64,000 nucleotides of DNA, from positions 17,585-81,584 of the forward strand of contig CAZUUA010000002.1 in assembly GCA_964623635.1 (NCBI GenBank), read 5' to 3'. Source of the DNA: an uncultured Ruminococcus sp. GTDB taxonomy: Bacteria; Bacillota; Clostridia; Oscillospirales; CAG-272. The notes under the pieces are model-generated. The model searched no databases. It worked only from the letters and a program-made list of their open reading frames with translations, and was not told the origin of the DNA. Both the position numbers and the translations under genes were made by a program. Of the stretch, positions 1,820-45,287 are shown in pieces (position 1 is the stretch's first letter; each line of letters starts with the position of its first letter).

Positions 1820-1829
1820 AGCGCACACC

Positions 1830-8214: not shown

Positions 8215-8225
8215 GGATAAAAAAC

Positions 8226-8633
8226 ATGAAAAACGAAAAAACAGACAAAGATACCTTTCGCATGACCTACTCTGCCCGGCAGCAGGAAGAGATCAAGGCG
8301 ATCCGGCAAAAATATATGCCCGAAGAACAACCGGCGCAGACCAATATCGAACGGGTGCGAGCACTGGACGCCGGGGTAGACAAAAAGGCCACCACCTGGG
8401 CACTGACCATCGGCATCCTTGGCACCCTGCTTATGGGACTGGGAATGAGTATGCTCATGTCCGAGTTTGGCACGCTCTTTGGCACACTGGCCACTCCGTT
8501 TGGCATCGGCATCGGTGTGGTGGGCATCGTAGCGCTGACCTGTGCCTATCCGGTGTACCTGCACATCGGCAAACGGGAACGGGAAAAGATCGCACCGGAG
8601 ATCCTGCGCCTGACCGATACGATCTTGAAATAA
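8226..8633 (+). CDS. Small membrane protein (2 TM) of unknown function
   Basis: Track ORF 8211..8633. ATG 8226 has GAGGA 8 nt upstream; 8211 (ATGA overlap with the preceding stop) is an alternative. Soluble charged N-terminal half, then two Gly-rich TM helices. Confidence 0.55.
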   Translation: MKNEKTDKDTFRMTYSARQQEEIKAIRQKYMPEEQPAQTNIERVRALDAGVDKKATTWALTIGILGTLLMGLGMSMLMSEFGTLFGTLATPFGIGIGVVGIVALTCAYPVYLHIGKREREKIAPEILRLTDTILK

Positions 8634-8749
8634 ACACAGAAACCAAAAAAGGACCGCATCCAATCGATACGATCCTTTTTCTTTGGCTCCATTTATGTAG
8701 ATTTTTGGAATATCTTTACGATAGTTTGTTTGTGAAAGACGAAACTTAG

Positions 8750-8820
8750 GGTGCCACCGCACAATTCTGATGATGCAGATGTGCCATCAAGGCGTTAGCC
8801 GTGAATTGTGCGGTGGTGCC
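8750..8820. repeat. Palindromic repeat element, short copy (71 bp)
   Basis: GGTGCCACCGCACAATTC tgatgatgcagatgtgccatcaaggcgttagccgt GAATTGTGCGGTGGTGCC. The arms pair over 18 positions if two G-T/G-U pairs are allowed. It is the reverse complement of the arms of the element at 4146-4317, is flanked by TTAG on both sides, and lies between two convergent gene ends. Confidence 0.8.
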
Positions 8821-8825
8821 TTAGC

Positions 8826-20739: not shown

Positions 20740-20819
20740 TCATTGAAACCCAAGTAAGATCCTGACCAGCCATACTTATGAGCGACCCATATTTTACAGA
20801 AAGCGGAGGGATACTACAA

Positions 20820-23264
20820 ATGAAGAAACGACAGATCCTATCTATGCTTTTGGCATCGACCATGCTGCTTGCCACCGGCTGTGACGAAGAGGCGATCACA
20901 ACGGCAGTGTTGGAGAACCTGGAATCGGCATTGGTGAGTGGTCCTGGCACAGACGGTGAAGAAACAGACCAGTCGGCGAACGATGGCTCTACAGATGTGG
21001 CAAAGGCCGACCCGGTTACAACCGATCCGGTTACAACCGATCCGGTTACAACCGAGCCGGTGAAGTCCAAGCGTACCAATGTATACCAAAGCATACCCAT
21101 TGCGCTGCCGGACGAGATCGGCGAAGGCACCGGCTATGTCCAGGATATGGTCAGCATTGGCGATAGGATCTATATGGAGTACGTGCAGCAGAACGATGAT
21201 GCATCGGAAACATGGCTGTACAGCACCGACGTGACCGGGGAGAACCAAACCTTCGTGCCGTTCCAAGATCCGTTGGAGGGCAGCGGTTACATGACCAAGC
21301 TGTACACCACAGATGAGAAGCTCTATGCCCTGTACGAGACCTGGTATGACAACAATGTCTACTGGCTCATGGAACTGGATCCCACAGACGGCAGCGTGAC
21401 AAAGCAGTACGATCTGAACGTGGCAAAGGACGCACTGGGTCTGACCGATGAAGACAGCTTCTATGTCGTCGATGTGGCACTGTCCGGACACACGGTCTAC
21501 CTCAACAGATACACCGAGCTGATCCCCTATGACCTGCAAACGGAGACCTGTGGGGATGTCATCGAGTTGCCGGAGAACATTATGGGGTTTGCCAGCACCT
21601 ATGGCACAGACGAGGGCATATACTTCACGGCCTATAACGAACAATATGAACAGAACTTCTATATTCTCGATCCGGCAACCGGAACAGCCACGCCGACCTG
21701 GATCGGTGACCCCGGTTATTTCGCTCCCATCGGGATGTGTGACGGGCTACTCTACTTCAACACCTACGATGCCGTTTTGACCTACGATTTCGAACATGGT
21801 CATGTGGGCGAGGTCCTGGATTTCCGCAACTGCGACATTCATCCGAACGAGGTCACGTATATGGTGATCACCGCTGACGGCACATTGGTATATTTTACCA
21901 GTTTGGACGATGGCAGAATATCCAGGATCGGCGGTAAGCTACAGACACTGGAACGCATCCCCGATGATCAATTGCCGGAGGAAGTGCTGTTGACCATCGC
22001 CACGACCTACTACGATTATAGCTTAGAGGATGCTGTGCTGCGCTACAACCGGCAGACTGACGGCGTACACATTGCCATCCAGGATTACAGCTATATGGCA
22101 GACGGCGAGCACGATGCTGCGTATTGGATCTGCAAAAACATCATCGATGGCGAAGCACCGGATCTGGTGCTGCTGGATCGGTATACGCCCGTGGAGAGAT
22201 ACTACAAAAATGGTCTGCTGGTGGATCTGTATCCGTACATGGACGGTGCAGAAAACGGCATCGATCGTTCTCAATATTTCGAAAACATCTTCAAGGCCTG
22301 TGAACGGGACGGCAAGCTGTACGCACTGATCACCAACTACAGCTTGGAGACCATGGCAGCCAAGTCCGCTTATGTGGGTTCTGATGCCGGTTGGTCTTTG
22401 TCGGAAATGTTAGACACCATCGAAGCCATGCCGGATGGTATGCGTGCCTTCAGTGGTTACGGACGAGACGATCTTTTGGCGCAGCTCATGCAGTATTGCG
22501 GCGAGCTCTTTATCGATTGGGAACGCAGTACCACCAACTTTGCCTCCGAGGACTTCCTGCGGCTGCTCACATTCCTGAAGACCTATCCGGAAAAGTCCGT
22601 CCTGAATGCCTACTATGAGGACGCCGCCCCGGATACCGGAACAAACTTCATGCGTGAATACGATATGCGGTTCTACAAGGATACGGCACTGCTGGAAACC
22701 GCATACATCTATGAAGTGCGTGGATATTGGGATCTCTTTAGAACCTTTGCGGAGAACCCCACCGTGATCGGCTATCCGACAAACGAAAGCAGTGGTACGA
22801 TCGTCCGTCCGACATTGGAGCTGGGTATCGGTGCTACCTCCGTGAACAAGGACAGCGCATGGGATTTCCTGCGGTATCTGCTGACATCGGAGGACGATCT
22901 GGAGATATACGAGAGCTTTCTTCCCATCTCCAAAGCACGGTTCGAAAAGCTGGTGGACGGCTCTGAAGCGTACTATGCTGGTTGGTACACCTATTCGGAA
23001 GACGAGTATGACTATATGCGCCAAGAGTACGGCGAGGAATACGTCACCTACCACCGTCAGGCCAATCAGCCCTATACCAAAGAGATGGGGCAAAAGGTCT
23101 ACGATCTGGCTGCCGGTGCCACCAAGGTCACACGGATGACCGACGGTATCATTGCCATCATCCAGGAAGAGGCAAGTGCCTACTTCTCCGACAGTCAAAC
23201 GGTCGAAGAAGCTGTAAAGTGCATAGACGACCGTGTATGCGCTTACATGGATGATCACAAATAA
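20820..23264 (+). CDS. Paralogous lipoprotein: linker with DPVTT repeats + repeated-blade domain + solute-binding domain
   Basis: Track ORF 20778..23264. ATG 20820 has GGAGGGA upstream. Lipobox MLLATGC. Collinear with the preceding gene throughout (for example PVKSKRTNVYQSIPIALPDEI versus PVKSKRTNVYSSTPLELPEDI; DLYPYMDGAENGIDRSQYFENIFKACE versus DLYPYMDSEENGIDRSQYLENVFKACE). Confidence 0.7.
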   Translation: MKKRQILSMLLASTMLLATGCDEEAITTAVLENLESALVSGPGTDGEETDQSANDGSTDVAKADPVTTDPVTTDPVTTEPVKSKRTNVYQSIPIALPDEIGEGTGYVQDMVSIGDRIYMEYVQQNDDASETWLYSTDVTGENQTFVPFQDPLEGSGYMTKLYTTDEKLYALYETWYDNNVYWLMELDPTDGSVTKQYDLNVAKDALGLTDEDSFYVVDVALSGHTVYLNRYTELIPYDLQTETCGDVIELPENIMGFASTYGTDEGIYFTAYNEQYEQNFYILDPATGTATPTWIGDPGYFAPIGMCDGLLYFNTYDAVLTYDFEHGHVGEVLDFRNCDIHPNEVTYMVITADGTLVYFTSLDDGRISRIGGKLQTLERIPDDQLPEEVLLTIATTYYDYSLEDAVLRYNRQTDGVHIAIQDYSYMADGEHDAAYWICKNIIDGEAPDLVLLDRYTPVERYYKNGLLVDLYPYMDGAENGIDRSQYFENIFKACERDGKLYALITNYSLETMAAKSAYVGSDAGWSLSEMLDTIEAMPDGMRAFSGYGRDDLLAQLMQYCGELFIDWERSTTNFASEDFLRLLTFLKTYPEKSVLNAYYEDAAPDTGTNFMREYDMRFYKDTALLETAYIYEVRGYWDLFRTFAENPTVIGYPTNESSGTIVRPTLELGIGATSVNKDSAWDFLRYLLTSEDDLEIYESFLPISKARFEKLVDGSEAYYAGWYTYSEDEYDYMRQEYGEEYVTYHRQANQPYTKEMGQKVYDLAAGATKVTRMTDGIIAIIQEEASAYFSDSQTVEEAVKCIDDRVCAYMDDHK
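21009..21068 (+). repeat. In-frame 15-bp tandem repeat (3 good units plus 1 degenerate) encoding DPVTT-DPVTT-DPVTT-EPV
   Basis: GACCCGGTTACAACC GATCCGGTTACAACC GATCCGGTTACAACC GAGCCGGTGAAGTCC, inside the second lipoprotein gene. Confidence 0.9.
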
Positions 23265-24255: not shown

Positions 24256-25389
24256 TTATCTCTTTTCCAGTCTGCCTCTGAAGATCTTGCAGTCGTGAGA
24301 GGGAACATATACGTTCATGTACTCAGCCTTCAGACCCAGGTCTTCGCCGGTGAAGATGTCACGCAGGTGCAGACCGTAGCCGGAGGTAGCGGTCAGACCG
24401 AAGTCATAGAATTCGCAGGTACCACCCCACTGACCGTCGGAATCGTGGTCGGAGAAGTTGAAGATGGCCAGGATGTATTCGCCGTTTGCGCAGTGCTTGA
24501 AGAAGATGGGACGTTCTCTGTCGCTGTTGACGATCATGGGCGGACGAGCTTCGGGATCCTGGTCGATGGCGATCAGTTCCTTATTCTTCATCAGCGCCAG
24601 GTTCACGTCGTCGATCTTGGTCAGGTCGGAACCGATCATCAGCGGAGACTGGAACAGGCACCACAGAGCGAAGTGTACCTTGTATTCGGTATCGGTGCAG
24701 CCGCCGTTGGCTACGTTGCCCTTGCCGTGCATACCGCAGATCAGCATATCGATATCGTTGTAGCAGCCGGGAGCAGAGTAGCCCAGCTTGTCTACCTGGC
24801 TCATAGCGATTTCCTTGAAGGAACGGAAGCTGTCGTTTACGTCGCCGGTGGAGCGATATATATGAGCACCGGTGGAACGGATCCACTTTTCCACTTCGTC
24901 AGAACCCCAGTTGCAGGCGGAGAACAGGATCTCACGGCCGCTTTCCTTCAGAGCCATACCCATACGGTTGTACAGGATGGGACCGTTGGCCAGCTTGGGC
25001 TTGTAGCAGAAGTCGTACTTCAGGTAGTCCACGCCCCAGTCGGCGAAGGTCTTGGCATCGATGAATTCGTAGTCAAAGCTGCCGGGATAACCAGCACAGG
25101 TACGGGTACCGGCGCAGGAATACATACCGAACTTCAGACCCTTGGAATGCACATAGTCAGCCAGTGCCTTCATGCCGGAAGGGAACTTGACAGGGTCAGC
25201 CACGATCTTACCATCGGCATCTCTTTCCCGGAGAGACCAGCAGTCGTCGATGACCACATATTCGTAACCGGCGTCCTTCAGACCCAGCGCCACGATAGCG
25301 TCAGCGGTGTCCCGAACCACCTGTTCGTTGATGTCGGCACCAAAGGTGTTCCAAGAGTTCCAACCCATCGGAGGAAGTGTAGATAACAT
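24256..25389 (-). CDS. Alpha-galactosidase, GH27
   Basis: 377 aa. PPMGWNSWNTF, YEYVVIDDCW, GLKFGMY, VDYLKYDFC. RBS AAAGGAGA. Confidence 0.9.
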   Translation of the reverse strand: MLSTLPPMGWNSWNTFGADINEQVVRDTADAIVALGLKDAGYEYVVIDDCWSLRERDADGKIVADPVKFPSGMKALADYVHSKGLKFGMYSCAGTRTCAGYPGSFDYEFIDAKTFADWGVDYLKYDFCYKPKLANGPILYNRMGMALKESGREILFSACNWGSDEVEKWIRSTGAHIYRSTGDVNDSFRSFKEIAMSQVDKLGYSAPGCYNDIDMLICGMHGKGNVANGGCTDTEYKVHFALWCLFQSPLMIGSDLTKIDDVNLALMKNKELIAIDQDPEARPPMIVNSDRERPIFFKHCANGEYILAIFNFSDHDSDGQWGGTCEFYDFGLTATSGYGLHLRDIFTGEDLGLKAEYMNVYVPSHDCKIFRGRLEKR

Positions 25390-26490: not shown

Positions 26491-27510
26491 ATGATGAAAA
26501 ACTATCTGCCGCTGGAACAGCATAAGCTGCTTGCCGCCACACTGCAGCCTTCACTCCGTTGGGACGGAAACGCTTCCTTGGATGCCCTGCGGGAAAAGAG
26601 TTATGCCAAGCTGTGGGAGCTGTTGGGTATGGACAAGATGCAGTCCTGCGAACCGGTTTTGGAGATCACCGCAGAGGACGAGGTACACGGGCACCGGCAC
26701 ATCCACTTTACCGTGCAGACGGAGCCGGACTACTACACCCACTGTGACCTGCTGCTGCCCAAGGAAATGCCGGAAGGGAAGCTGCCTCTGTGCGCTTGTC
26801 TGCAAGGACATTCCAAGGGTGCCCACATTTCGCTTGGTATGCCGAAATATCCGGGTGACGAGGAGACCATTTCCGGCGGTGACCGGGACTTCTGCCTTCG
26901 TGCCATCGAAGAAGGGTATGCCGCACTGGCCATCGAACAGCGTGCCTTTGGTCTGAACGGCGGTACCGAGAACGGCCCCGACTGTACTCGTCCGGTGCTG
27001 ACGGCGTTGCTGCTGGGTCGCACGATCATTGGCGAACGGGTCTGGGACATTATGCGTGTGCTGGACGCCATCGAAGCCAACTTTGCCGATACCATTACCC
27101 TGGAGAACTCGATCCTCATGGGCAACTCCGGCGGCGGTACCACCACCTATTACACCGCCTGCTTAGAGCATCGTTTTGCCGGATTCATGCCGTCCTGCGC
27201 CGTGTGTACCTACCGGGATTCCATCGTAGCCGTACACCACTGTCCCTGCAACTATGTTCCTCGTATCGCAGAATATTTCGATATGGGTGACCTGGCACTG
27301 CTCATTGCCCCGAAGAAGCTGGTGATCGTCTGCGGCAAGGACGACTCGATCTTCCCGCTCCATGGCGTAAACGAGACCTTTGAGATCGTCAAGAAGCTGT
27401 ACGCCGGTATGGGCGTGGCGGACAACTGCGCACTGGTGGTAGGCTATGCCGGTCACCGGTTCTACGCCAACGAAGCCTGGCCGGTCATGAAGGCGCTGCT
27501 GGCTAAATGA
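26491..27510 (+). CDS. Alpha/beta hydrolase (acetyl-esterase / dienelactone-hydrolase-like)
   Basis: 339 aa. Nucleophile elbow GNSGGG, and a C-terminal ...GKDDSIFP...GHRF pattern consistent with Asp/His triad residues. RBS AAAGGAGAG. Confidence 0.7.
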   Translation: MMKNYLPLEQHKLLAATLQPSLRWDGNASLDALREKSYAKLWELLGMDKMQSCEPVLEITAEDEVHGHRHIHFTVQTEPDYYTHCDLLLPKEMPEGKLPLCACLQGHSKGAHISLGMPKYPGDEETISGGDRDFCLRAIEEGYAALAIEQRAFGLNGGTENGPDCTRPVLTALLLGRTIIGERVWDIMRVLDAIEANFADTITLENSILMGNSGGGTTTYYTACLEHRFAGFMPSCAVCTYRDSIVAVHHCPCNYVPRIAEYFDMGDLALLIAPKKLVIVCGKDDSIFPLHGVNETFEIVKKLYAGMGVADNCALVVGYAGHRFYANEAWPVMKALLAK

Positions 27511-27568: not shown

Positions 27569-28291
27569 TTATTCCAGAATATTGGATGTGATCTGGTCCA
27601 CGCCCCAGCCGATCAGTCGAGCCGCATCTTCCGGATTGTCCACCGTCCAGCAGTTGACAACGATACCGGCCGCATGGCAAGCCTGGATCTTTTCTTCAGT
27701 CAGACCGGGGAAGTAGATGTCCAGATCCATACCGGCCTTGGCAAGCTTCTCGATCAGTGCATCGTCCACCTTGTCGGTTAGGAACTGTACCTTCTGCTCC
27801 GGCCGCACCTCCTTCACCAGCTCCAGATTGTGATAGTTGAAGGAAATGAAGCAAACGTTGTCCAGATAGCCATCGAAGATCGCTAAGATCTCCTTGATCT
27901 CGTCCAGAGAGAATGCGCTCTTCAGCTCCGGTACGCAGACCTTGCCGTAGTGCTCACAGATCTTCCGGTATTCGGAAGGCAGACACAGCTTCAGCTCAGC
28001 CCGGTCGGTCTTGCCGTCCACGTCCTTCAGGGTCAGCGCACGCAGATCGGCCAGCGTAGATTTTTCCATTTCCAGATCCACTTCGCAGATCCGACCGGAA
28101 CGACCGTCGTGGTTGCAGATGTACTGCCCGTCGATGGTGTGGTAAATGTCGGTCTCCACGCCCCAGTGGGAACGGTTACCGGCAGCGATAAAGGCAGCGG
28201 CGGTGTTTTCGGTCTCCAGTCCGCTGACGCCGCGATGGGCTACCATTTTGGTGTTGCCATGGTCTGCGATCTTGATCGTATCTTTTCTCAT
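27569..28291 (-). CDS. Glycerophosphodiester phosphodiesterase (GDPD)
   Basis: 240 aa. MVAHRGVSGLETENT and GVETDIYHTIDG are GDPD catalytic blocks. RBS AAGGAGGA. Confidence 0.85.
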   Translation of the reverse strand: MRKDTIKIADHGNTKMVAHRGVSGLETENTAAAFIAAGNRSHWGVETDIYHTIDGQYICNHDGRSGRICEVDLEMEKSTLADLRALTLKDVDGKTDRAELKLCLPSEYRKICEHYGKVCVPELKSAFSLDEIKEILAIFDGYLDNVCFISFNYHNLELVKEVRPEQKVQFLTDKVDDALIEKLAKAGMDLDIYFPGLTEEKIQACHAAGIVVNCWTVDNPEDAARLIGWGVDQITSNILE

Positions 28292-28447
28292 AAGTGATCC
28301 TCCTTACGGCAGTCACGCCATATACAGATCGTACGTGTAGGTGTGTACGCGCACACAGGTACACAGGTACGGTATTTGTATTGTACCACATTTTTCGCCA
28401 TTTTCCAATAGTATTTTGAAAATTTACAGGAAAAGTACAAAAAATGC

Positions 28448-28476
28448 TTGCATCTCGGACGAAGATGTGTTATACT
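28448..28476 (+). promoter_or_regulatory. Putative sigma-A promoter of the glycyl-radical enzyme gene
   Basis: TTGCAT - 17 nt - TATACT, 65 nt upstream of the ATG. The 5' UTR contains the hairpin CCCC gacaaaa GGGG. Confidence 0.5.
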
Positions 28477-28540
28477 ACCCAAAAAGAGAATTTGCTAAGC
28501 CCCGACAAAAGGGGATCCGAAAAAGCGAAAGGAGCAACCT

Positions 28541-30652
28541 ATGGAATTTTGCTGTGGTACAGGTCTGCATCGACCGGTACGTCTGTCGGAGGAGACCAGA
28601 GCCTTTGCCTGGCGTTCCCTCCATGGAACCTATGGGGACGATGCCATGACCCATCTGGACATTCCCATGGACAACATACACGGCTTCCGGGAGCTGGACG
28701 CCGACGAACAATATTCCCTCTGCATCGACGCCATCGCCAGACAGGCGCCACTGCGGCTCATCGACGGAGAAAAGCTGTGCGGTGCTGCCACCTTGGGTAG
28801 AGCCATCGCACACCAGATCCCCGTCACCTACGGAGGAGAGATGGTCATGCCTTCGGTGAGTCACCTGACCCTGGATTTTGCTACGGTGCTGCGGATCGGA
28901 CTGAACGGCATTCAAAAGCAGGTGGAGCAAAACTGCCCCTATCCGCTGCGGAAATACCTGCTGCGTACCCTGCACGCCTTCCGCATCTGGCACAACCGGT
29001 ATCGCATCGCCGAACAGGAGCACGACCCGGCGCTTGCCAATATGCTGTCGCACGTACCCTTTGGCGTGCCCACGTCCTTCCACGAAGCGGTACTGAGCCT
29101 GTGGTTCACCTTTGCCTTTGTACGGCTGTGCGGCAACTGGCCCGGTATCGGACGGATCGACCAGATGCTGGAACCGTTCCTGCAGGCAGACCTGGCAAGC
29201 GGCAAGATCACGCTGGACGAAGCACGGGAGATTTTGGCGCACTTTTTCATCAAGGGCTGCGAATGGATCCGGAAAGATCCCCCCATCACCACCGGTGACG
29301 CACAGCATTACCAGAATCTGGTTTTAGCCGGTACCAATGAAAACGGCATAGACGTGACGGGGAACGTGACCCATCTGATCCTGGACGTGATCGAGGAGCT
29401 GCCTATCGGCGACTTTCCCATTACGGTGCGGCTGCACGAGAAAAGCGACCCCAAGCTGATCCGGCGTGTGGCAGAGGTGATCCGGTATGGCGGCGGCGTG
29501 CTGGCTGTCTACAACGAACCGCTGATCCTGCGTGCCCTGACCTCGGTGGGCTACGATCCAAAGGAAGCCCGCAACTTTGCCAACGACGGCTGCTGGGAGG
29601 TGCAGATCCCCGGCAAAACCGATTTCATCTACCTCCCCTTCGACAGCTATACCATGCTCATGCGGGACGTGCTGGGCGTTGGCGGCGAACACCGGGACTT
29701 CGATAGCTGGGATGCCATTCTAGATGCGTTTCTGGAAAGACTCCGCCAGCACGTGGACGGTACCTTTGCAGCGCTGTGTGACGGGTTGCTGACTAAGGAC
29801 GAAAACGGCACCTGGCAGTGGAAACGGTACGGCGGCCCGGCACACGTAATCTCCCTGCTGGAAGGTGGCTGTATCGATAGCGGCAGAGAATATTACCATG
29901 GTGGTACAAAATATGTGGTGCGTTCCCCCCATATCGGCGGCGCACCCGATACAGGCAATAGCCTGTACGCCATTCGCAAGCTGGTGTACGAAGACCATTT
30001 GGTGACCCTGCCGGAGCTGCTGGACATTCTGGAAAACGACTGGGAAGGTCACGAACCCCTGCGGCAGATCGCCATGAATCGATACACCTATTACGGAAAT
30101 GACAACGCCGAAGCCGATGCCGTGACCGCCATGATCTTAGACAGCTTTGCCGATATGGTGCTGACCCACGCCACCGAAACGCCGCTATTGTATATCCCCG
30201 GCGTATCCACCTTTGGCAGACAGATCGATTGGCTGGAACAGCGCACCGCAGCTCCCTTTGGCGCCAAGAAAAACACGATTTTGGCAGGGAACTGCTCCCC
30301 CACACCGGGCACCGATCTGGAAGGCGCCACCGCCATCATCCGCTCCTATTGCAGTGCCGATATGGAAAAGCAGGTCAACGGCGCCGCACTGGATGTGAAG
30401 CTGCATCCTACCGCTGTGCAAGGCGAAAACGGTCTGACAGCATTGGAAGCACTGCTGACCAGCTTTGTGGAATTGGGCGGCTACTTCCTGCAGGTGGACG
30501 TGATCGACGCCGCAGTGCTCCGGGAAGCACAAAAGAATCCGGAGGCCTACAAAACCCTGTCCGTGCGTGTATCCGGCTGGAATGCCCGGTTCATCACCCT
30601 GCAGCCCAATTGGCAGGAAATGATCATCCAGCGCACCGCCACCGGGATATAA
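28541..30652 (+). CDS. Glycyl-radical enzyme, PFL2/dehydratase-lyase-like, short form (703 aa)
   Basis: Glycyl-radical fingerprint SVRVSGWNA (Gly679) near the C-terminus. Cys loop FANDGCWEV (Cys351, Cys-x-Glu). Other GRE blocks: FHEAVLSLWF, GRIDQ, YQNLVLAG, GGGVLAVYNEP, NCSPTPGTDLEGATA, LDVKLHP. RBS AAAGGAG. Confidence 0.85.
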   Translation: MEFCCGTGLHRPVRLSEETRAFAWRSLHGTYGDDAMTHLDIPMDNIHGFRELDADEQYSLCIDAIARQAPLRLIDGEKLCGAATLGRAIAHQIPVTYGGEMVMPSVSHLTLDFATVLRIGLNGIQKQVEQNCPYPLRKYLLRTLHAFRIWHNRYRIAEQEHDPALANMLSHVPFGVPTSFHEAVLSLWFTFAFVRLCGNWPGIGRIDQMLEPFLQADLASGKITLDEAREILAHFFIKGCEWIRKDPPITTGDAQHYQNLVLAGTNENGIDVTGNVTHLILDVIEELPIGDFPITVRLHEKSDPKLIRRVAEVIRYGGGVLAVYNEPLILRALTSVGYDPKEARNFANDGCWEVQIPGKTDFIYLPFDSYTMLMRDVLGVGGEHRDFDSWDAILDAFLERLRQHVDGTFAALCDGLLTKDENGTWQWKRYGGPAHVISLLEGGCIDSGREYYHGGTKYVVRSPHIGGAPDTGNSLYAIRKLVYEDHLVTLPELLDILENDWEGHEPLRQIAMNRYTYYGNDNAEADAVTAMILDSFADMVLTHATETPLLYIPGVSTFGRQIDWLEQRTAAPFGAKKNTILAGNCSPTPGTDLEGATAIIRSYCSADMEKQVNGAALDVKLHPTAVQGENGLTALEALLTSFVELGGYFLQVDVIDAAVLREAQKNPEAYKTLSVRVSGWNARFITLQPNWQEMIIQRTATGI

Positions 30653-30721: not shown

Positions 30722-30750
30722 TTGCAATTTTTGGGAAAATGGTGTATACT
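30722..30750 (+). promoter_or_regulatory. Putative sigma-A promoter of smpB
   Basis: TTGCAA - 17 nt - TATACT. Confidence 0.5.
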
Positions 30751-30794: not shown

Positions 30795-31274
30795 ATGGCA
30801 CAAGAGAAAAAAGGTCATAAAGTGATCGCCGTGAACCGCAAGGCCCGACACGACTATTTTGTGGACGAGACCTACGAAGCCGGCATCGAACTCTATGGGA
30901 CGGAAGTCAAAAGCATCCGAGTTGGGCAGGTGAACCTGAAGGATTCCTACTGTAAGGTGGAAAACGGTGAGCTGCTTGCCATCGGTGTGCGGATCAGTCC
31001 CTACGAAAAGGGAAATATCTTCAACCGAGATCCCATGCGGGAAAAACGGTTGTTGATGCACAAAAAAGAGATCCTGAAGCTGCAGCAGTATACCCAGCGG
31101 GACAGCTACACTTTGGTGCCGCTATCCTTGTATTTCTCCGGCGCACACGTGAAAATGGAAGTGGGCCTGTGCAAGGGTAAAAAGCTGTGGGATAAGCGTG
31201 AGTCCGATGCCAAGGCTGAAGCCGGACGAGAGATCGCTCGATATGCCAAAATGGAAAGACGCCGTGAGGACTAA
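30795..31274 (+). CDS. smpB: SsrA-binding protein
   Basis: Track ORF 30708..31274. ATG 30795 has TAGGAGGT upstream. KVIAVNRKARHDYF, GIELYGTEVKS, ISPYEKGN and LLMHKKEI are canonical SmpB blocks. Confidence 0.95.
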   Translation: MAQEKKGHKVIAVNRKARHDYFVDETYEAGIELYGTEVKSIRVGQVNLKDSYCKVENGELLAIGVRISPYEKGNIFNRDPMREKRLLMHKKEILKLQQYTQRDSYTLVPLSLYFSGAHVKMEVGLCKGKKLWDKRESDAKAEAGREIARYAKMERRRED

Positions 31275-31277: not shown

Positions 31278-32192
31278 ATGGAACTACGTACCTTACTGAA
31301 CGAACGTCGCAGCAACCGTGCTTTCAACGGTAAGCCTGTCACAAGCGCGCAGGTGCAGGAGCTGCTGTACGCCGCCACCAAAGCACCCAATGCCTGCAAT
31401 CTGCAATCCTGGCATTTTTATGCACTGGATCAACAGAAAATTGCCGACATGGTGCCCACCGTGTACAAAGGCGAATGGATCAAAACCGCCGGTGTGGCTT
31501 TCGTGGTGTGTACCGAAGATGGTGCGTTGACCAGCCGATTTGGCGAAAGAGGAAAGCTCTTTGCCGTCCAGGATACGGCAGCTGCCATGACCATGCTGCT
31601 CCTTCGTGCGACAGACCTGGGACTGACAGGCTGTTGGATCGGTGCCTTTGATCCGGACGAGTGCCGCAGGTTCTTATCGATCCCGGACACACGCACGCCG
31701 GTCGCTATCGCTATGGTGGGATACGCCGACGAACTGCCACCACTACGGGAGCGCAAGCCGTTGGAAAAGGTATCCACGCTCTGTGGTGAATTTCCCGTCA
31801 CCGATGGGGAAGAGCTGTACATGCCGTACACGTTGTCTGCCGGAAGCTACAGTGGTGCAAGGTTTGAAGACTTGAACCTGCCCGGTGCGGATTTCTCCAC
31901 TGTGGTTATGCAAAACGCAAAGTTTGACAATATCGATCTGGCGAATGCCGCTTTTACCGACATCAATCTGTCCGGCTCCACCTACGCCGGGGTCTACATG
32001 GCGGGTGTACATTTTGGTGCAGCGGATGCCAAGGATACCTGCGTGGAAATGGATGGCGCAGTGCTGACCGAGGTGAGCCTAACGGATGCGCTGCTGCGTC
32101 GGTGTCATCTGCAAAACGCAAAGCTGGAAGGCTGTGATCTCGAAGGTCTGACCATCGATGGAATGCCAGCCAAAGAATATTTCACAAAATAA
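31278..32192 (+). CDS. Nitroreductase-domain :: pentapeptide-repeat fusion protein
   Basis: 304 aa. N-terminal ~175 aa: RRSNRAF ... APNACNLQSWHF ... TGCWIGAF (nitroreductase fold). C-terminal ~110 aa: A(D/N)LxX-type pentapeptide repeats (ARFEDLNLPGADFSTVVMQNAKFDNIDLANAAFTDINLSGS...). Confidence 0.75.
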   Translation: MELRTLLNERRSNRAFNGKPVTSAQVQELLYAATKAPNACNLQSWHFYALDQQKIADMVPTVYKGEWIKTAGVAFVVCTEDGALTSRFGERGKLFAVQDTAAAMTMLLLRATDLGLTGCWIGAFDPDECRRFLSIPDTRTPVAIAMVGYADELPPLRERKPLEKVSTLCGEFPVTDGEELYMPYTLSAGSYSGARFEDLNLPGADFSTVVMQNAKFDNIDLANAAFTDINLSGSTYAGVYMAGVHFGAADAKDTCVEMDGAVLTEVSLTDALLRRCHLQNAKLEGCDLEGLTIDGMPAKEYFTK

Positions 32193-32227: not shown

Positions 32228-32601
32228 GGGGACGTAAAGGTTTCGACGGGGATCTTGCAGTACGATAAGCGGGTAGAGTAGGAGCACTCTTCAAAACTCC
32301 AACTTTAAAATTAAACGCTAACGATAACGTAGCACTGGCTGCCTAAGTGCGGCCTGTCCGTCGGGGGAACGCTGCGGCCCTCGAATGTCCCAAACGGGAA
32401 GTCACGCCCATTGCGTACTGGCATCATGTAGCAGCGTCCGTGAACGGTGAGTTTGCTTTTGCAGCCGTCATGCATCAAAAAGATACTGTGGGAAGAGCCT
32501 GACGACCGGCGCTTCGTACAGGAAATTTCATAGATCGTCTGCACCCGGAGAAAGTTGTATGAATGGGTTTTCGGACAGGGGTTCGACTCCCCTCGTCTCC
32601 A
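32228..32601 (+). ncRNA. ssrA: tmRNA (ssrA); predicted tag ANDNVALAA
   Basis: The 5' end GGGGACGTAAAGGTTTCGACGGGG pairs with the 3' end GGACAGGGGTTCGACTCCCCTCGTCTCCA (T-arm plus acceptor; CCA is not encoded). Tag reading frame GCT AAC GAT AAC GTA GCA CTG GCT GCC TAA at 32317-32346. It follows smpB. Confidence 0.9.
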
Positions 32602-32606
32602 GCCAC

Positions 32607-32855: not shown

Positions 32856-34367
32856 ATGAAACATGGCAACAAACAAGACTGGATACGGCGTCTGTTCTGT
32901 GCACTCTTAGCCGGGCTCTTAGCCGGTGGGATGCTGATGGGAATGATCGGCTGTGGCCGTGAGGAGACGGAGACTACCGGTGGCGATACGACGGCCAACG
33001 AGACCACCGTCACCACCGAGGAAACGGAGCTTATGCCCGATGTGCCGATCACCGATATGGAAGGGAAGGATATGCACCTGTTCATCCAAGGCTGGTGCAA
33101 CTATGATCCTCTACAGATCAAGGATATTCTGGTGGAAGAAATAAACGGCGAAGGGATCAACGATGCTGCCTACAACCGGAATCTGGAAATGGAGCAGCTC
33201 TTCAACTGCACACTGTCAGCTGAAGTGGAGCCGAACAGCTACGACGATGGTATCAACCATGTGATCAATACCGTCACCGCCGGGGATGCTGCCTATGATT
33301 TCGTACTCATGCGTGCCATCCAGTACAACCGGCTCTGCCTGTCCGGTGGCTTCTATATGCTCTCCGACGTACCCCACATCGATCTCACCAAGCCCTGGTG
33401 GGACAGCGGTTTCTACGATGCCGTTTCCATTTTGGGCAAGACCTATGGCGCCATCTCGGATATCACCATCAACTCCTATCTCCTGGCGGCAGACGTGTAT
33501 TTCAATAAGGATATGATCCAGGATTACGGCCTGGACGATCCGTATACGCTGGTGAACGAAGGCAAGTGGACGTGGGACAAAATGTTCGAAATGGCCGATG
33601 TGGTGGATCAAGACCTGAACGGAGACGGCAATTATACCAACGAAGACCTATTCGGTATCACCTATATCGATGACAGCCCGGAGGCGCTTCTTACCGCAGC
33701 CAACGTGACCTTTGCCGAGCTGGATAAAGACGGCATTCCGCAGGTCACTTTGTACAGCGAAAACAACATGACCAAGATCATGCACCTGTCCGACCTGCTG
33801 CAGGATCAGGCCATCTCCTTCAACTGCCACGCCAGAAGCCCGCAGGCCAATGCCGATGAAGCCGGTATGCTGGTACGAGGAGCAACGCTGTTCTGCTTGG
33901 GCGGTCTGTACTATGCGCCGGAAATGCGGATGATGGACCAGGAATTCGGCATCGTGCCCTATCCGAAGTATGACGACGAACAGAACGAGTATCGCATTCC
34001 CATGGTCACGGTGGCGCTGACCTATGCCAGTGTGCCGTTGACCAACACCGATCTGGACAACACCGGCATCTTCATGGAATACTATGCATACCTGGGTAGA
34101 CGGGATATCGTTCCGGCGCTGTACGAAAAGCTGTTGCTGGGCAAGGTATCCAGAGACAACGAATCCCAGGCCATGCTGGACATTATTTTCAACAATCGAT
34201 TCTTTGATACCGGCATGATCTTCGACTTTGGTGGACTGCGTACCGATCTGCGGACACAGTACCATAACCTGAAGGAAGACTTTTCCTCTCTGTTTGCCAC
34301 CAACAAAACCAAGGTAGCAGAGAACATCGAGGATGTGGTCGAACAGTTCCGTGCCTTGGAAGACTGA
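32856..34367 (+). CDS. Large extracellular solute-binding lipoprotein (family 1, ~500-aa LplA-like type)
   Basis: 503 aa. Lipobox GMIGC followed by a T/E-rich linker. SBP-like body. RBS AGGAGGAAG. Confidence 0.8.
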   Translation: MKHGNKQDWIRRLFCALLAGLLAGGMLMGMIGCGREETETTGGDTTANETTVTTEETELMPDVPITDMEGKDMHLFIQGWCNYDPLQIKDILVEEINGEGINDAAYNRNLEMEQLFNCTLSAEVEPNSYDDGINHVINTVTAGDAAYDFVLMRAIQYNRLCLSGGFYMLSDVPHIDLTKPWWDSGFYDAVSILGKTYGAISDITINSYLLAADVYFNKDMIQDYGLDDPYTLVNEGKWTWDKMFEMADVVDQDLNGDGNYTNEDLFGITYIDDSPEALLTAANVTFAELDKDGIPQVTLYSENNMTKIMHLSDLLQDQAISFNCHARSPQANADEAGMLVRGATLFCLGGLYYAPEMRMMDQEFGIVPYPKYDDEQNEYRIPMVTVALTYASVPLTNTDLDNTGIFMEYYAYLGRRDIVPALYEKLLLGKVSRDNESQAMLDIIFNNRFFDTGMIFDFGGLRTDLRTQYHNLKEDFSSLFATNKTKVAENIEDVVEQFRALED

Positions 34368-34427
34368 GCGACACCGCTTTTCTGCGATACAATTTTGAGA
34401 AAATTCCTATGCCAAAGGAGTATATAC

Positions 34428-36959
34428 ATGAGATCCACTACTTTTCCGTCTACACAGCAGAGTGAAATATCCTTTCCCCTCGGTGGCATCGGTGCCGGCT
34501 GCATCGGTCTGGCTGGCAACGGTCGGCTCATCGACTGGGAAATTTTCAACCGACCCAGCAAGGGCAGCATGAACGGCAACTCCCACTTCGCCATCAAAGC
34601 CATGCAGGACGGCAAGCTCATCGACGCACGGGTGATCAACGGCGACGTGACCACCGGACTGACCGGCGGCGGTGCCGGACTGCCTGCAGCCACTATGGCC
34701 GGCTTCCCCCACTTCCGCCACTGCACCTTCACCGGTGAATTTCCCGTGGCGAAGATCGACTTTGCCGACGAGACCTTCCCCGGTGCCGTACAGCTCACTG
34801 CCTGGTCTCCGCTGATTCCCCTGAACGATAAGGATTCCAGCCTGCCTGCCGCCTTCTTCTCCTATGCGGTCACCAATACCACCGATCGTCCCATTGACTA
34901 CGCTGTCTCCACCACCATGCGCAACCCCTACGACAGCTCTGTCAACGACTACAAGGCAGACGGCAGCATCCATGCTCTGTTCCTGCGGCAGACCAAGTTT
35001 GCGCCGGACAGCACCGAATACGGTGACCTGACCATTGCCACCGATACCGAAGGCGAAGTGTCCTGCCAGCAGTATTGGTACCGTGGCGCCTGGAACGATG
35101 GTCTGGAACGGTATTGGCGCAACTTCACCGAGCAGGAGATCTACGAGCCCCGCACCTACGACGATCCCGGTAGAAACGATATGGCGAACTTGGCCGTCAA
35201 GCGCACCGCTCAGCCTGGGGAGACCATCACCTTCCGGTTCGTGTTGACCTGGAGCCGTCCCAACTGCTGCAACTACTGGAGTCGGTACACGAAGAAAAAC
35301 GAAGCCGGTGAAGACGTGGACGTGACCTGGAAGAACTATTATGCGACCCTGTTTGCGGATTCCTACGACACCGCACAGTATGCGCTGCATAGCTGGGACA
35401 AGCTGTGGTGCGGCACCAAGACCTACCACGATGCCCTGTTTGCTTCCACACTGCCGGAAGAGGTGATCGAAGCCATTTCCGCCACCACATCGGTGCTCAA
35501 GTCTCCTACGGTGCTGCGGCTGGAAAACGGTGCGTTCTACGGCTGGGAAGGCGTCTGGGGCGATACCGGCTCCTGCGAAGGCACCTGCACCCACGTATGG
35601 AACTACGCCTACGCCCTGTGCTTCCTGTTCCCCACTTTGGAAAGAAGCATCCGGGAGACCGACTTCACCTATAACCAGGACGAAAACGGTCGTATGTCCT
35701 TCCGTATGAACCTGCCGCTGGGCAGAGAACGGCATAGCTTCCGTGCCTGTGTCGATGGACAAATGGGTGGCGTGATCAAGACCTACCGGGAATGGAAGCT
35801 GTCCGGGGACGATAACTGGCTGAAGAAATGGTGGCCTGCTGTAAAGAAGTCCATTGAATATGCCTGGAGCGACAAGAACCCCGACAGATGGGACGCTGAC
35901 CACGATGGCGTGCTGGAAGGTCGTCAGCACCACACCCTGGACGTAGAGCTGTTTGGTCCCTCGTCCTGGCTGGAAGGCTTCTACCTGGCAGCACTGCTCT
36001 GTGGTGCAGAGATGGCAGAGCGTGTGGGAGAACCGGACACCGCCGCCGCATATAGAGAGCTGTATGAAAAAGGCAAGAAGTGGTGTGACGAAAACCTGTT
36101 CAACGGCAAATGGTATGCCCAGAAGGTCGAGCTTGGTGACAAATCCACTGTGGATGCCTTTGGCGCAGGTGAATATTGGAACAGCGAATCGAAGGAGATC
36201 AAGTACCAGATCGGCGAAGGCTGTATCATCGACCAGTGTTTGGCCCAGTGGCACGCCAATCTGTGCGGCATAAACGGCGATATCTACGACAAGGATCAGC
36301 TGCATACCGCTCTGCAGAGTCTGTACAAGTACAACTTCCTGCCGGATATGCGTTCCCACTACAACACGTTCCGGCTCTTTGCGGTCAACGACGAAGCCGG
36401 TGCCATCATCTGCTCCTGGCCGGAAGGTGCCCAGACCCCGGCGATCCCGATCCCCTATGCGCAGGAATCCATGCACGGCTTTGAATATTCACTTGCCGGA
36501 CTGATGATCTCCGAGGGCATGATCGACGAAGGTGTAGAGATCGTGAAGGCCATCCGGGCTCGGTACAGAGGGAACAACCGGAATCCGTGGAACGAGATCG
36601 AATGCGGCAACAACTATGCCCGTAGCATGGCAAGCTTTGCGCTGCTGCCCATCTTCACCGGCTACCGATTCGATATGCCCGACCAGACTCTGGGCTTTGA
36701 CCCGATCCTGCCCGGTGACTTCCGCAGCCTGTGGTTCACCGGCGACGCATGGGGCACCTACGAAAAGACTGCAGACAAGACCAAGCTGACGGTGCTCTCT
36801 GGTACGCTGCATCTGCACACCCTGCATCTGCCGTATATGACGGAAGTGGAGACGGTGCTGGTGGACGGACAGCCTGCGAAATTTGCCTTTGGCGCAGGGG
36901 AGCTGGATATGCATATTACCGCCAGTGAGACCGTCGAGGTCGTTGGCACGGTGCGCTAA
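34428..36959 (+). CDS. GH116 beta-glucosidase (GBA2/glucosylceramidase-type)
   Basis: Track ORF 34395..36959. ATG 34428 has AAAGGAG upstream. FPLGGIGAGCIGLAGNGRLIDWEIFNRP is the characteristic GH116 N-domain opening. C-terminal (alpha/alpha)6-like region with GQMGG and NPWNEIECGNNYARSMA. Confidence 0.85.
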   Translation: MRSTTFPSTQQSEISFPLGGIGAGCIGLAGNGRLIDWEIFNRPSKGSMNGNSHFAIKAMQDGKLIDARVINGDVTTGLTGGGAGLPAATMAGFPHFRHCTFTGEFPVAKIDFADETFPGAVQLTAWSPLIPLNDKDSSLPAAFFSYAVTNTTDRPIDYAVSTTMRNPYDSSVNDYKADGSIHALFLRQTKFAPDSTEYGDLTIATDTEGEVSCQQYWYRGAWNDGLERYWRNFTEQEIYEPRTYDDPGRNDMANLAVKRTAQPGETITFRFVLTWSRPNCCNYWSRYTKKNEAGEDVDVTWKNYYATLFADSYDTAQYALHSWDKLWCGTKTYHDALFASTLPEEVIEAISATTSVLKSPTVLRLENGAFYGWEGVWGDTGSCEGTCTHVWNYAYALCFLFPTLERSIRETDFTYNQDENGRMSFRMNLPLGRERHSFRACVDGQMGGVIKTYREWKLSGDDNWLKKWWPAVKKSIEYAWSDKNPDRWDADHDGVLEGRQHHTLDVELFGPSSWLEGFYLAALLCGAEMAERVGEPDTAAAYRELYEKGKKWCDENLFNGKWYAQKVELGDKSTVDAFGAGEYWNSESKEIKYQIGEGCIIDQCLAQWHANLCGINGDIYDKDQLHTALQSLYKYNFLPDMRSHYNTFRLFAVNDEAGAIICSWPEGAQTPAIPIPYAQESMHGFEYSLAGLMISEGMIDEGVEIVKAIRARYRGNNRNPWNEIECGNNYARSMASFALLPIFTGYRFDMPDQTLGFDPILPGDFRSLWFTGDAWGTYEKTADKTKLTVLSGTLHLHTLHLPYMTEVETVLVDGQPAKFAFGAGELDMHITASETVEVVGTVR

Positions 36960-39328: not shown

Positions 39329-40822
39329 GTGTGGGACGTGCCAAAGCTATTCCAGATCCATCCAAGCGATACCGTGGCGGTGGCGATCGATGCCATCGAA
39401 AAAGGCGAACGAGTACCCATAGATGATCGATGGATCACTGTCATGGAGTCGATCCCGGCAGGTCACAAGGTCGCACTGCAGACGATCGGCACCGGTGAGA
39501 CCATCCGCAAATACGGCGCACCCATCGGACACGCCACAGTGGAGATCCCCGTGGGTCATCATGTACACAGCCACAACACGGCCTCCGACCTGACCGGTAC
39601 GCTGTCGTACACCTATACGCCGGTCGCCTGTGAGCTGCTACCGGAGACACCGAAGACCTTTCTGGGATATCGCCGGGACGACGGTCGTGTGGCTATCCGA
39701 AACGAGGTGTGGATCCTACCCACGGTCGGCTGCGTCAACAACATCGTCCGGGAAATGGAAGACCGTGCCCAGTCCCTGCGAACGGAACACATCGACGCCA
39801 TTGCCGCTTTTTGCCATCCGTACGGCTGTTCTCAGCTGGGCGGTGACCAGGCAAAGACGCTGTCGTACCTGGCCGGTATGATCCGACATCCCCATGCGGC
39901 CGCTGTATTGGTGGTGGGACTGGGCTGTGAAAACGGCAACATTGCAGAGTTGCAAAAGGTTCTTGGCACATGGGATCCGGAGCGTGTGCGGTTTTTGGTG
40001 ACCCAGGACGTGGAAGACGAAATAGAGGCAGGCCTGTCGATCCTGACGGAACTTTGTGCCAAGGCCGAAGGTGCCCGGCGTACCGAATGTTCTGCGGCAG
40101 AGCTGGTGATCGGACTGAAATGCGGCGGCTCCGACGGCTTCTCCGGCATCACAGCCAATCCGCTGCTGGGGCGTGTCACCGATCGACTGATCGCCGGTGG
40201 TGGCAGTGCGATCCTGACCGAGGTGCCGGAAATGTTTGGGGCAGAGACACTGTTGATGGAACGGTGCCGCAGCGAAAAACAGTTTGCAGGCACCGTAGCG
40301 CTCATCAACGATTTCAAAGCGTATTTCCAGCGGTACGGCGAACCCATCGATGAAAATCCATCACCGGGCAACAAAGCAGGCGGTATCACCACCTTGGCAG
40401 AAAAATCCTTAGGCTGTACCCAAAAAGGTGGGTCGGCGCCGGTGGAGGACGTACTGCGATACGGGGAACCCATCCGGAAAAAAGGACTGTCTCTGCTGGA
40501 AGCACCGGGGAACGACCTGGTGGCATCCGGTGCATTGGTGGCGTCCGGGGCCCATATGGTGCTGTTTACCACCGGTCGAGGCACACCCTTTGGCTGCCCG
40601 GTGCCCACGATGAAGATCTCGTCCAACACGGCACTGGCCGAGCGGAAAAAAGCCTGGATCGATTTTGACGCCGGACGATTGCTTGCAGGTGTGCCCATGG
40701 ATACCTTATGCGATGACCTGTTGGAGCGGATCCTATCCATCGCATCCGGAGAAACACATACCCACGCAGAAGCCTTGGATCGTCACGACTTGGCGATCTT
40801 CAAGGACGGCGTGACCCTATGA
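39329..40822 (+). CDS. uxaA: Altronate dehydratase
   Basis: 497 aa. SAF N-domain (IHPSDTVAVAIDAI...AGHKVAL) and UxaA/GarD C-domain (GCVN, GGSDGFSG, PFGCP). GTG start 39329, or GTG 39338 (GAGGTG upstream). Confidence 0.9.
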   Translation: MWDVPKLFQIHPSDTVAVAIDAIEKGERVPIDDRWITVMESIPAGHKVALQTIGTGETIRKYGAPIGHATVEIPVGHHVHSHNTASDLTGTLSYTYTPVACELLPETPKTFLGYRRDDGRVAIRNEVWILPTVGCVNNIVREMEDRAQSLRTEHIDAIAAFCHPYGCSQLGGDQAKTLSYLAGMIRHPHAAAVLVVGLGCENGNIAELQKVLGTWDPERVRFLVTQDVEDEIEAGLSILTELCAKAEGARRTECSAAELVIGLKCGGSDGFSGITANPLLGRVTDRLIAGGGSAILTEVPEMFGAETLLMERCRSEKQFAGTVALINDFKAYFQRYGEPIDENPSPGNKAGGITTLAEKSLGCTQKGGSAPVEDVLRYGEPIRKKGLSLLEAPGNDLVASGALVASGAHMVLFTTGRGTPFGCPVPTMKISSNTALAERKKAWIDFDAGRLLAGVPMDTLCDDLLERILSIASGETHTHAEALDRHDLAIFKDGVTL

Positions 40823-40837
40823 CCGAAAGGAGAACCT

Positions 40838-45142: not shown

Positions 45143-45185
45143 GAAAAATTCCTCACTTTGTGGGTTTACCAGAATGCATAGCTGT

Positions 45186-45214
45186 ATTGTAGCATACAGT
45201 GGTGCGCTTGTCAA
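45186..45214 (-). promoter_or_regulatory. Putative sigma-A promoter of the 796-aa gene
   Basis: Minus strand TTGACA - 17 nt - TACAAT. Confidence 0.5.
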
Positions 45215-45235
45215 TACAAAATGGGAAATCTGCAT

Positions 45236-45287
45236 AAAAAATTGGCTTTGCTCGCCATGGAAAACCATGTGACGAAAGCAAAGCCAA
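45236..45287 (-). terminator. Rho-independent terminator after the ABC exporter operon
   Basis: Minus strand TTGGCTTTGCT ... AGCAAAGCCAA followed by TTTTTT. Confidence 0.65.

Follow-up and report, generated by a model that had tools for sequence, protein, structure and literature searches.

A compact glycyl radical enzyme gene divergent from a GDPD gene

The stretch analysed here, hereafter the window, comprises 64,000 nt of contig CAZUUA010000002.1 from an uncultured Ruminococcus sp., and its subject is an open reading frame (ORF) at 28541..30652 on the plus strand, stop codon included, which encodes a 703-aa glycyl radical enzyme (GRE) of the PFL2 type. A sequence-only reading of the window had described this ORF as a GRE carrying the radical-glycine fingerprint SVRVSGWNA (Gly679) and the Cys loop NDGCWEV (Cys351), transcribed from its own consensus-like promoter and divergent from a glycerophosphodiester phosphodiesterase (GDPD) gene at 27569-28291, and all of these features were borne out. 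Pfam assigns residues 105-557 to PFL-like (PF02901, 1.5e-72) and residues 583-685 to Gly_radical (PF01228, 4e-21), and the ATG is preceded, at a distance of 6 nt, by the strong ribosome-binding site GAAAGGAG. The structure model, the Foldseek matches and the substitution rates described below agree with this call.

The Cys loop, FANDGCWEVQIPG (residues 346-358, 29576..29614, plus strand), and the Gly loop, VRVSGWNARF (residues 675-684, 30563..30592, plus strand), are defined by alignment and conservation. Pairwise and profile alignments alike place Cys351 (nt 29591-29593) at Cys433, Glu353 at Glu435 and Gly679 (nt 30575-30577) at Gly763 of the B12-independent glycerol dehydratase of C. butyricum (GD, 1R8W), so that neither catalytic position is misaligned. 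Gly679 is thus the predicted glycyl radical site, Cys351 the predicted thiyl radical site and Glu353 the putative general base of the C-x-E (CXE) class. The RVxG[FYW] fingerprint that carries the radical Gly is present, as is the class-defining C351-W-E353, and Cys351, Trp352, Glu353 and Gly679 are invariant across 121 sequences, with the remaining motif positions invariant or nearly so.

The GDPD gene (27569..28291, minus strand) encodes 240 aa matching PF03009 (6.5e-25). It scores 75 bits on the UgpQ-like NCBIfam model, whose cut-off is 264; residues H19, R20, E46, D48, H61, E122 and K124 are invariant, and no signal peptide was evident on reading of the sequence, no predictor having been run. 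Between the two genes lies a shared 249-bp control region (28292..28540, no strand assigned) in which a promoter scan and the sequence itself reveal back-to-back promoters. That of GDPD, on the minus strand, consists of TTGGAA (28408-28403), 17 nt and TG-n-TACAAT (28385-28380). The promoter-like element of the GRE, on the plus strand, consists of TTGCAT (28448-28453), 17 nt and TATACT (28471-28476) with an extended -10 TG, and was missed by a simple scan because its -35 hexamer matches at three of six positions; GGAG of the ribosome-binding site follows at 28531-28534. An A/T-rich near-palindrome separates the two promoters, and the spacer matches no Rfam family, riboswitch or other.

A discrete family without a characterised member

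Database searching yielded 120 relatives with identities of 51% or higher, nearly all 699-742 aa long and mostly named 'hypothetical protein'; a look-up of the exact window GRE sequence gave no record. Among genomes sampled at one per GTDB species, at least 572 loci encoding a relative, typically of 700-715 aa, were picked up with the peptide patterns FANDGCWE and VSGWNARF; in these relatives FANDGCWE and RVSGWNARF are invariant or nearly so. The 80 loci kept from these all derive from uncultured Clostridia, mostly gut or rumen metagenome-assembled genomes (MAGs). Among the loci listed, the nearest relatives belong to 'uncultured Ruminococcus sp.' MAGs at 94-95% identity, and the DNA runs that hold the window locus are gut and faecal metagenomes; a look-up of RNA runs listed none.

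The family is discrete and matches no characterised GRE. In a phmmer search run exhaustively over 1.84 billion cluster representatives, full-length members of the family reach 480 bits or more (40-50% identity), and no other full-length GRE exceeds 304 bits. Against NCBIfam, the window GRE reaches 276 bits on the PFL2/glycerol dehydratase subfamily model TIGR01774 (cut-off 678) and 142-242 bits on the eliminase and decarboxylase equivalogs (cut-offs 1000-1150), passing none. Its identity to solved GREs is about 22-28%, or 22-24% over the structural alignment, and the compact class is not listed in a June 2026 review of GREs (PMC13450708). The suggestion of the sequence-only reading that this is an uncharacterised GRE subfamily is supported on each of these counts, and the protein does not cluster tightly with any characterised enzyme. 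A search of the literature for a characterised GRE of the compact type, or for any link between GDPD and a GRE, found only the indirect route from glycerophosphocholine through choline to CutC.

The comparison of an AlphaFold model with known GRE structures, proposed with that reading, was carried out. The AF2 model, built on 86 sequences, has a predicted local distance difference test (pLDDT) score of 92.7 and a predicted template modelling score (pTM) of 0.92. Foldseek aligns it to 50 GRE chains with template modelling (TM) scores of 0.78-0.85, and the modelled fold contains the 10-stranded beta/alpha barrel. Glycerol and 1,2-propanediol dehydratases give the best matches (TM 0.83-0.85), with HypD, HpzG, CutC, PflD and YbiW close behind.

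Position of the missing residues

At 703 aa, as against 787 for GD, the window GRE is about 84 aa shorter. A shortfall of some 80-140 residues N-terminal to the Cys loop had been proposed; the shortness is real, but it does not reflect a missing N-terminus, the main loss being internal and of about 60 aa. Residues 11-32, RPVRLSEETRAFAWRSLHGTYG (28571..28636, plus strand), form a motif conserved in the 86 sequences, with R11, L15, A23 and G32 invariant and P12, R14, R20, S26 and Y31 nearly so, from which we conclude that the N-terminus is genuine and untruncated. The main deletion site (28745..28864, plus strand) comprises APLRLIDGEKLCGAATLG, residues 69-86, which is the equivalent of the ELIVG helix, followed by about 20 residues leading to SVSH (105-108); canonical PFL2 enzymes have about 80 residues in this interval. 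Family residues ~55-86 match the canonical ELIVG helix (GD 48-78), about 60 canonical residues (within GD 79-151) have no counterpart, and alignment resumes just before S-V-S-His108, of which S107 and H108 are invariant in the 86 sequences. The mapping comes from hhalign of the compact family against 22 PFL2 representatives of canonical length (777-810 aa; probability 100%, 647 aligned columns), and a search of the family profile against PDB sequences with HMMER agrees with it. Further, smaller deletions of about 12 and about 4 residues lie downstream. Through the internal deletion of about 60 aa, the window GRE lacks part of the N-terminal helical region seen in the canonical enzymes of ~780-850 aa.

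An artefact of frameshift or truncation, with the missing part encoded upstream in another frame, is ruled out: length and N-terminal motif are kept in 121 relatives, the ribosome-binding site is strong, and the 249 bp upstream are the conserved promoter region. The implication that short length by itself sets the enzyme apart was not borne out, since lengths of 690-760 aa are common among distant, uncharacterised GRE representatives. The helices preceding the barrel form the conserved dimer interface of GREs (PMC13450708). Because the deletion falls in this pre-barrel helical region, the oligomeric state of the compact enzymes is possibly altered.

Two longer representatives were noted. P0125 (964 aa; FANDGCWE, RIAGWSARF), a family member, carries a Laminin_G_3 domain (residues 215-350) inserted at the family's deletion site and begins with a twin-arginine-like signal, MNRREFVKAVSGVTALGG, an odd feature on a GRE. 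P0123 (875 aa) has a 216-aa N-terminal extension without a Pfam match. Considered as hints to the substrate, neither fusion points to any.

Loss of the linked activase in an orphan sub-clade

No gene for a radical S-adenosylmethionine (SAM) activase was found in the window, as the sequence-only reading had claimed, and this holds on three tests. A CxxxCxxC pattern search over stop-to-stop ORFs returned only four Arg/Cys/Ser-rich segments, which look like off-frame translation from their composition, the frames not having been checked individually; tblastn with two activases of the family gave no match; and a hidden Markov model (HMM) built from 40 family activases gave a best E-value of 0.43 against the six-frame translation of the window. 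A six-frame search with the family GRE profile likewise revealed no second GRE in the window.

Elsewhere in the family the situation is different. Activase linkage was assessed at 56 loci of more distant relatives (GREs 50-56% identical to that of the window), all with at least 1 kb of downstream sequence, and 44 of them have an activase adjacent downstream. This is a radical SAM gene of about 300 aa, starting 0-60 bp 3' of the GRE and often overlapping its stop codon, whose product passes the generic model TIGR02494 (304 bits vs 174) but no equivalog. About 22 loci of the activase-linked type also have, upstream, a divergent regulator of the AraC type. In the sub-clade to which the window belongs (GREs at 57% identity or more, plus L031), an activase is adjacent in none of 17 loci, nor is there one within 10 kb. 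The absence of an activase is thus a trait of this orphan sub-clade but not of the family, whose ancestral arrangement is (divergent AraC regulator)-GRE-activase. In a neighbour-joining tree the orphan sub-clade is monophyletic and nested among activase-bearing lineages, which makes a single loss of linkage the simplest history. Twelve further loci scattered over the tree also have no linked activase, so that unlinked activation seems to have been tolerated repeatedly in the family.

A fragment of about 38 aa with 74% identity to the family activase was found upstream of the GRE at L063:8721-8834, where the 3 kb available downstream of the GRE contain no intact activase; it may be the remnant of a rearranged activase gene.

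The activases of GREs are usually considered specific and adjacent to their partners (PMC13450708). This, together with the absence of an activase from the 64 kb of the window and from 10 kb around every other clade member, might suggest that the orphan GRE is no longer a radical enzyme, being either a decaying relic or a recruit to some radical-independent role. We regard this as highly improbable, given that the window GRE is under strong purifying selection. Pairwise ratios of nonsynonymous to synonymous substitution rates (dN/dS) are 0.06-0.10 in the orphan clade, the same range as the 0.07-0.11 of three pairs outside it (one of which, L080/L082, itself has no adjacent activase). Moreover, Gly679, Cys351, Glu353 and the entire Gly loop are conserved within the clade, length is maintained without frameshifts in about 20 lineages, and the glycyl radical domain, on which the activase has to dock, is not diverging faster, with an identity of 0.67 between the clades vs 0.70 within the activase-linked set. 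A comparison of orphan and activase-linked enzymes yielded no clade-specific substitution in the Gly loop.

Purifying selection, taken together with the unchanged Gly loop and glycyl radical domain, makes activation in trans a reasonable expectation. All recorded cross-activation, such as that of TdcE by PflA, involves GREs whose Gly loops are conserved (PMC13450708), and the most economical view is that the window GRE would be activated by an unlinked activase of the family type or by the activase of a paralog. E. coli provides a precedent for a GRE or GRE module without an adjacent activase of its own in TdcE and GrcA/YfiD, both activated by PflA, which their conserved Gly loop sequence allows (PMC13450708). 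These are PFL-type proteins that have the loop RVSGYAV in common with PflB, unlike the RVSGWNA of the window GRE.

The predicted active-site pocket and known CXE enzymes

GD (DhaB1, 1R8W/1R9D) and 1,2-propanediol dehydratase (PD; 5I2A/5I2G, 9RCO-9RCR) are the closest sequence matches of the family (profile E-value 1e-97 for 1r8w), resembling it in the GRE barrel, the C-terminal glycyl radical domain, the CXE loop and a predicted radical 1,2-elimination. His108 aligns with the general acid GD His164 and Tyr257 with GD Tyr339, so both are kept. Around them the pocket differs. Trp352 replaces the GD Val between Cys and Glu. In the loop GNWPGIGRIDQ (residues 198-208, 29132..29164, plus strand), HMMER alignments to 1r8w and 6vxc put Pro201-Gly202 where GD has His281-Ser282; G198, G202, G204 and D207 are invariant in the 86 sequences, and the Pro-Gly pair is, judged from alignment, a family-specific difference in the substrate pocket. 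The position of GD Asp447 falls at Tyr364/Leu365, without a counterpart, in YLPFDSY (residues 364-370, 29630..29650, plus strand), the barrel strand after the Cys loop. Comparison of the clades shows the last residue of this strand to be the only one that separates them cleanly, with Tyr370 in 20 of 20 activase-less sequences and Leu in 58 of 58 activase-linked ones. Finally, STFGRQ (residues 556-561, 30206..30223, plus strand), identified by alignment and invariance, corresponds to the strand that holds GD Tyr640; Ser556 stands in place of that Tyr, and Arg560, family-specific and invariant in the 86 sequences, is a candidate anion-binding residue. Both Arg560 and Tyr370 are predicted to face the pocket.

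One could nevertheless suppose that the enzyme is no more than a divergent member of the B12-independent glycerol or 1,2-propanediol dehydratases, whose function would then already be known. GD and PD are after all the top matches in both sequence and structure, and the equivalents of the catalytic Cys and Glu and of His164 and Tyr339 are kept. Yet the window GRE, at 22-24% identity over the structural alignment and about 84 aa shorter, has none of the substrate-binding residues of GD/PD (His281/Ser282, Asp447 and Tyr640 all fail to align with like residues), has Trp for Val and an extra Arg560, and falls below the TIGR01774 cut-off; over the range of 22-28% identity to solved enzymes, the margin by which GD and PD lead HypD, CutC, HpyG and PflD is small. 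No 1,3-propanediol dehydrogenase (dhaT), aldehyde dehydrogenase or microcompartment genes lie near the GRE in any locus examined, and in the orphan clade, unlike the GD/PD systems, no activase is adjacent. We therefore find a diol dehydratase very unlikely.

The other CXE enzymes, comprising the eliminases HypD, HpyG/HpzG, CutC, IslA/IseG and HpsG/HpfG and the isomerases HplG, YbiW and PflD, have the fold (TM 0.78-0.85) and the CXE motif in common with the window GRE, and have in common with the compact family the TIGR02494-type activase (in the sister clades) and the logic of ketyl-radical elimination. They differ in length (765-850 aa as against about 700), and the window GRE falls short of their equivalog models by a factor of 4-5 in score. 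For instance, it reaches 199 bits against 1050 on the CutC model TIGR04394 and has His108 in place of CutC Asp216, a residue that we take to correspond to the GD His164 position; on the HypD model NF043068 it reaches 242 bits against 1100, and the position of HypD Asp278 is occupied by Pro201. As for the Arg/Gln/Arg triad that binds sulfonate, the window GRE has no Arg at the corresponding positions, which were inferred without an inspected alignment to IslA or HpsG. The PFL2 protein of Archaeoglobus fulgidus (2F3O), whose function is unassigned, has a similar Gly-Trp loop (RVAGWSAYF), a DGC-x-E Cys loop and a pre-barrel GISH, but is an archaeal protein of 776 aa with a canonical N-terminal region, and at about 21% identity and a profile score of 310 bits it is no closer to the family than GD.

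Linkage to GDPD and the proposed reaction

In 13 of the 16 assessable orphan-clade loci the GRE has a divergent GDPD gene no more than 1.6 kb upstream, an arrangement seen in none of 50 loci elsewhere. The promoter arrangement and hexamers are kept in 13 clade members, with GREs down to about 57% identical to that of the window, and the GRE promoter takes the conserved form TTGCA(T/A)-17-TATA(A/C)T. The genes on either side change, being smpB and the nitroreductase-pentapeptide gene in the window and close relatives but nusB, xseAB, trmO and secA in P0022 and P0026, and in four loci an M42 peptidase gene intervenes between GDPD and GRE.

We consider it likely that the window encodes a functional member of an uncharacterised family of compact (~700-715 aa) PFL2-type GREs, a radical eliminase of the CXE type that is activated by an unlinked activase. 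An activase encoded elsewhere, either the relocated cognate or that of a paralogous GRE, would install the radical on Gly679, from which it would move to Cys351. In characterised CXE enzymes the thiyl radical takes a hydrogen from the hydroxyl-bearing carbon, the Glu deprotonates the hydroxyl, and the adjacent leaving group, known to be OH, NR3, SO3 or a ring O or N, departs (PMC13450708). By analogy, the Cys351 thiyl radical would take a hydrogen from a substrate carbon bearing a hydroxyl, Glu353 would remove the proton of that hydroxyl and the group on the neighbouring carbon would leave, in a 1,2-elimination or ring-opening that most likely cleaves a C-O bond. In GD, His164 protonates the leaving hydroxyl (PMC13450708), and because His108 sits at this position, what leaves is probably a hydroxyl or some other group attached through oxygen. 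The substrate is probably not glycerol or propanediol, since the contacts that GD makes to the C3 end of glycerol have given way to Pro201-Gly202 and Ser556, and the invariant Arg560 is added; it may be larger or anionic. For the orphan clade one might speculate that GDPD supplies it, for example as sn-glycerol 3-phosphate or as the alcohol set free.

Several observations weigh against this reading. No activase for the window GRE was located within the 64 kb; the pocket assignments depend on alignment at 22-28% identity; and the CXE motif does not separate eliminases from isomerases. No catabolic or transport genes are consistently linked to the GRE in either clade, as neither unbiased ORF clustering over 84 loci nor Pfam contexts at seven loci revealed recurrent linkage beyond activase, AraC and GDPD; Gfo/Idh/MocA oxidoreductases, present in about eight loci, are too few to interpret. 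With regard to GDPD, 16 orthologs at 60% identity or more could be assessed on metagenome contigs, of which four lie beside this GRE and about nine have no such neighbour in upstream stretches of at least 2.5 kb; the remaining three (L100-L102) lie between two different short GRE-like genes accompanied by an activase. Only one or two conserved residues, Tyr370/Leu370 and Ser139Tyr, differ between the GDPD-linked and the other, activase-linked clades, so GDPD may not inform on the substrate at all. As the exchange at position 370 is essentially the sole conserved difference near the active site, substrate specificity was probably set before GDPD became linked.

The hint of a glycerophospho-alcohol substrate that the sequence-only reading drew from the GDPD neighbour thus fares unevenly: pair and promoters are conserved across rearranged neighbourhoods, which is more than chance would give, but a functional link is possible and weak, since GDPD orthologs often occur without the GRE and the activase-linked relatives without GDPD have nearly the same conserved residues. 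Taken at its strongest, the hint implies a two-step pathway. GDPD would split a glycerophosphodiester inside the cell, and one of the resulting products would then undergo radical elimination by the GRE. Candidates for that product are sn-glycerol 3-phosphate, which would lose water or phosphate (HpfG and HpsG, which act on dihydroxypropanesulfonate, offer the analogy), and the alcohol set free. Besides the maintained divergent adjacency and back-to-back promoters, such a pathway would accord with the replacement of the GD residues contacting the C3-OH end of glycerol, with the invariant Arg560 on a pocket strand, with the clade-specific change of Leu370 to Tyr near the Cys loop and with the 69%-identical GDPD ortholog of L100-L102, whose neighbours are an activase and two other short GREs. 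Even so, we hold it unlikely. All GDPD-linked loci fall in one monophyletic clade and represent one evolutionary event, the association is often absent when viewed from GDPD, the M42 peptidase gene interrupts it in four loci, and Arg560 is also found in the activase-linked relatives that have no GDPD, in which the substrate was probably already fixed. Still more doubtful is the bolder proposal that the pair constitutes a new radical route for glycerophosphodiesters in gut Clostridia, such as a glycyl radical sn-glycerol-3-phosphate dehydratase or phosphate-lyase, in which a compact GRE would do without an activase of its own and be cross-activated by that of another GRE.

The same observations can be read as inherited synteny without function, the orphan GRE acting on the substrate of its AraC-regulated, activase-linked relatives and having lost activase linkage by rearrangement. 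A single event in a monophyletic clade, an association that is not reciprocal, near identity of the conserved residues across clades and the recurrence of activase unlinking at the 12 scattered loci, which shows it to be tolerated generally, would all be expected on this account. Against it, pair and promoters persist at synonymous-site saturation (dS >2) and across different flanks, and neutral gene pairs rarely persist to such saturation. It could well be correct, although we stop slightly short of favouring it.

The three loci L100-L102 deserve separate mention and may represent a second GDPD-GRE association or a coincidence. The GRE-like proteins encoded there measure 715 and 719 aa; their Gly loops (RVTGFTAYF and RVGGYSAHF) are intact, and their Cys loops (GCNW and GCNQ) are without the CXE Glu. 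They are 24-26% identical to the window GRE, and both fall below the TIGR01774 cut-off. They flank the GDPD ortholog and are accompanied by a 276-aa activase, an EamA transporter and an Amidohydro_2 protein, with three Gfo/Idh/MocA oxidoreductases in addition in L101. The genes of this short GRE/activase cluster lie at 6789-8936, 1757-3916 and 8987-9817 of L102, all on the minus strand, and the same genes are found in L100 and L101.

Significance

GREs perform much of the difficult anaerobic chemistry of the gut, including the formation of trimethylamine, H2S, p-cresol and skatole and the use of hydroxyproline. Whole GRE clades remain unassigned (PMC13450708). What is newly described here is the compact family and its orphan sub-clade, the fold and the CXE chemistry class being already known, and we see in them less a surprise than a clearly delimited target for enzymology. 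With at least 572 species-level genomes, a distinctive architecture and a simple, expressible AraC-GRE-activase module, the family is tractable for function discovery. The orphan sub-clade has a further use as a natural experiment on activation, in which the linked activase was lost while purifying selection stayed strong and the Gly loop unchanged. The deletion in the dimer-interface region may show whether GRE function needs dimerisation.

Other features of the window

Directly downstream of the GRE is smpB (30795-31274, plus strand), with a promoter-like site of its own, TTGCAA-17-TATACT, at 30722-30750. Relatives down to 78% identity preserve the order GRE-smpB; at 68% identity the distance to smpB downstream has grown to about 2.7 kb. 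A gene in which a nitroreductase domain is fused to pentapeptide repeats (31278-32192) separates smpB from a tmRNA gene (32228-32604, plus strand; Rfam RF00023, 144 bits), 1 kb beyond smpB. The Rfam scan also identified a lysine riboswitch (3771-3972, minus strand, 87 bits) and a T-box leader (57238-57514, plus strand, 99 bits).

Four large ORFs of the window are without a Pfam match, at 20778-23264 (plus strand, 828 aa), 42752-45268 (minus strand, 838 aa), 32856-34367 (plus strand, 503 aa) and 26491-27510 (plus strand, 339 aa), as is a 737-aa ORF downstream of the GRE at L009:12256-14469 (plus strand). The 503-aa protein resembles a solute-binding lipoprotein, and in a few loci relatives of it are again encoded close to the GRE. 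The wider surroundings in the window, including 24256-25389 (minus strand), 34395-36959 (plus strand) and 39329-42343 (plus strand), are given over to carbohydrate catabolism, with a GH27 alpha-galactosidase, a GH116 beta-glucosidase and an altronate/galactarate dehydratase next to an enzyme of the mannitol dehydrogenase family (UxaB-like).

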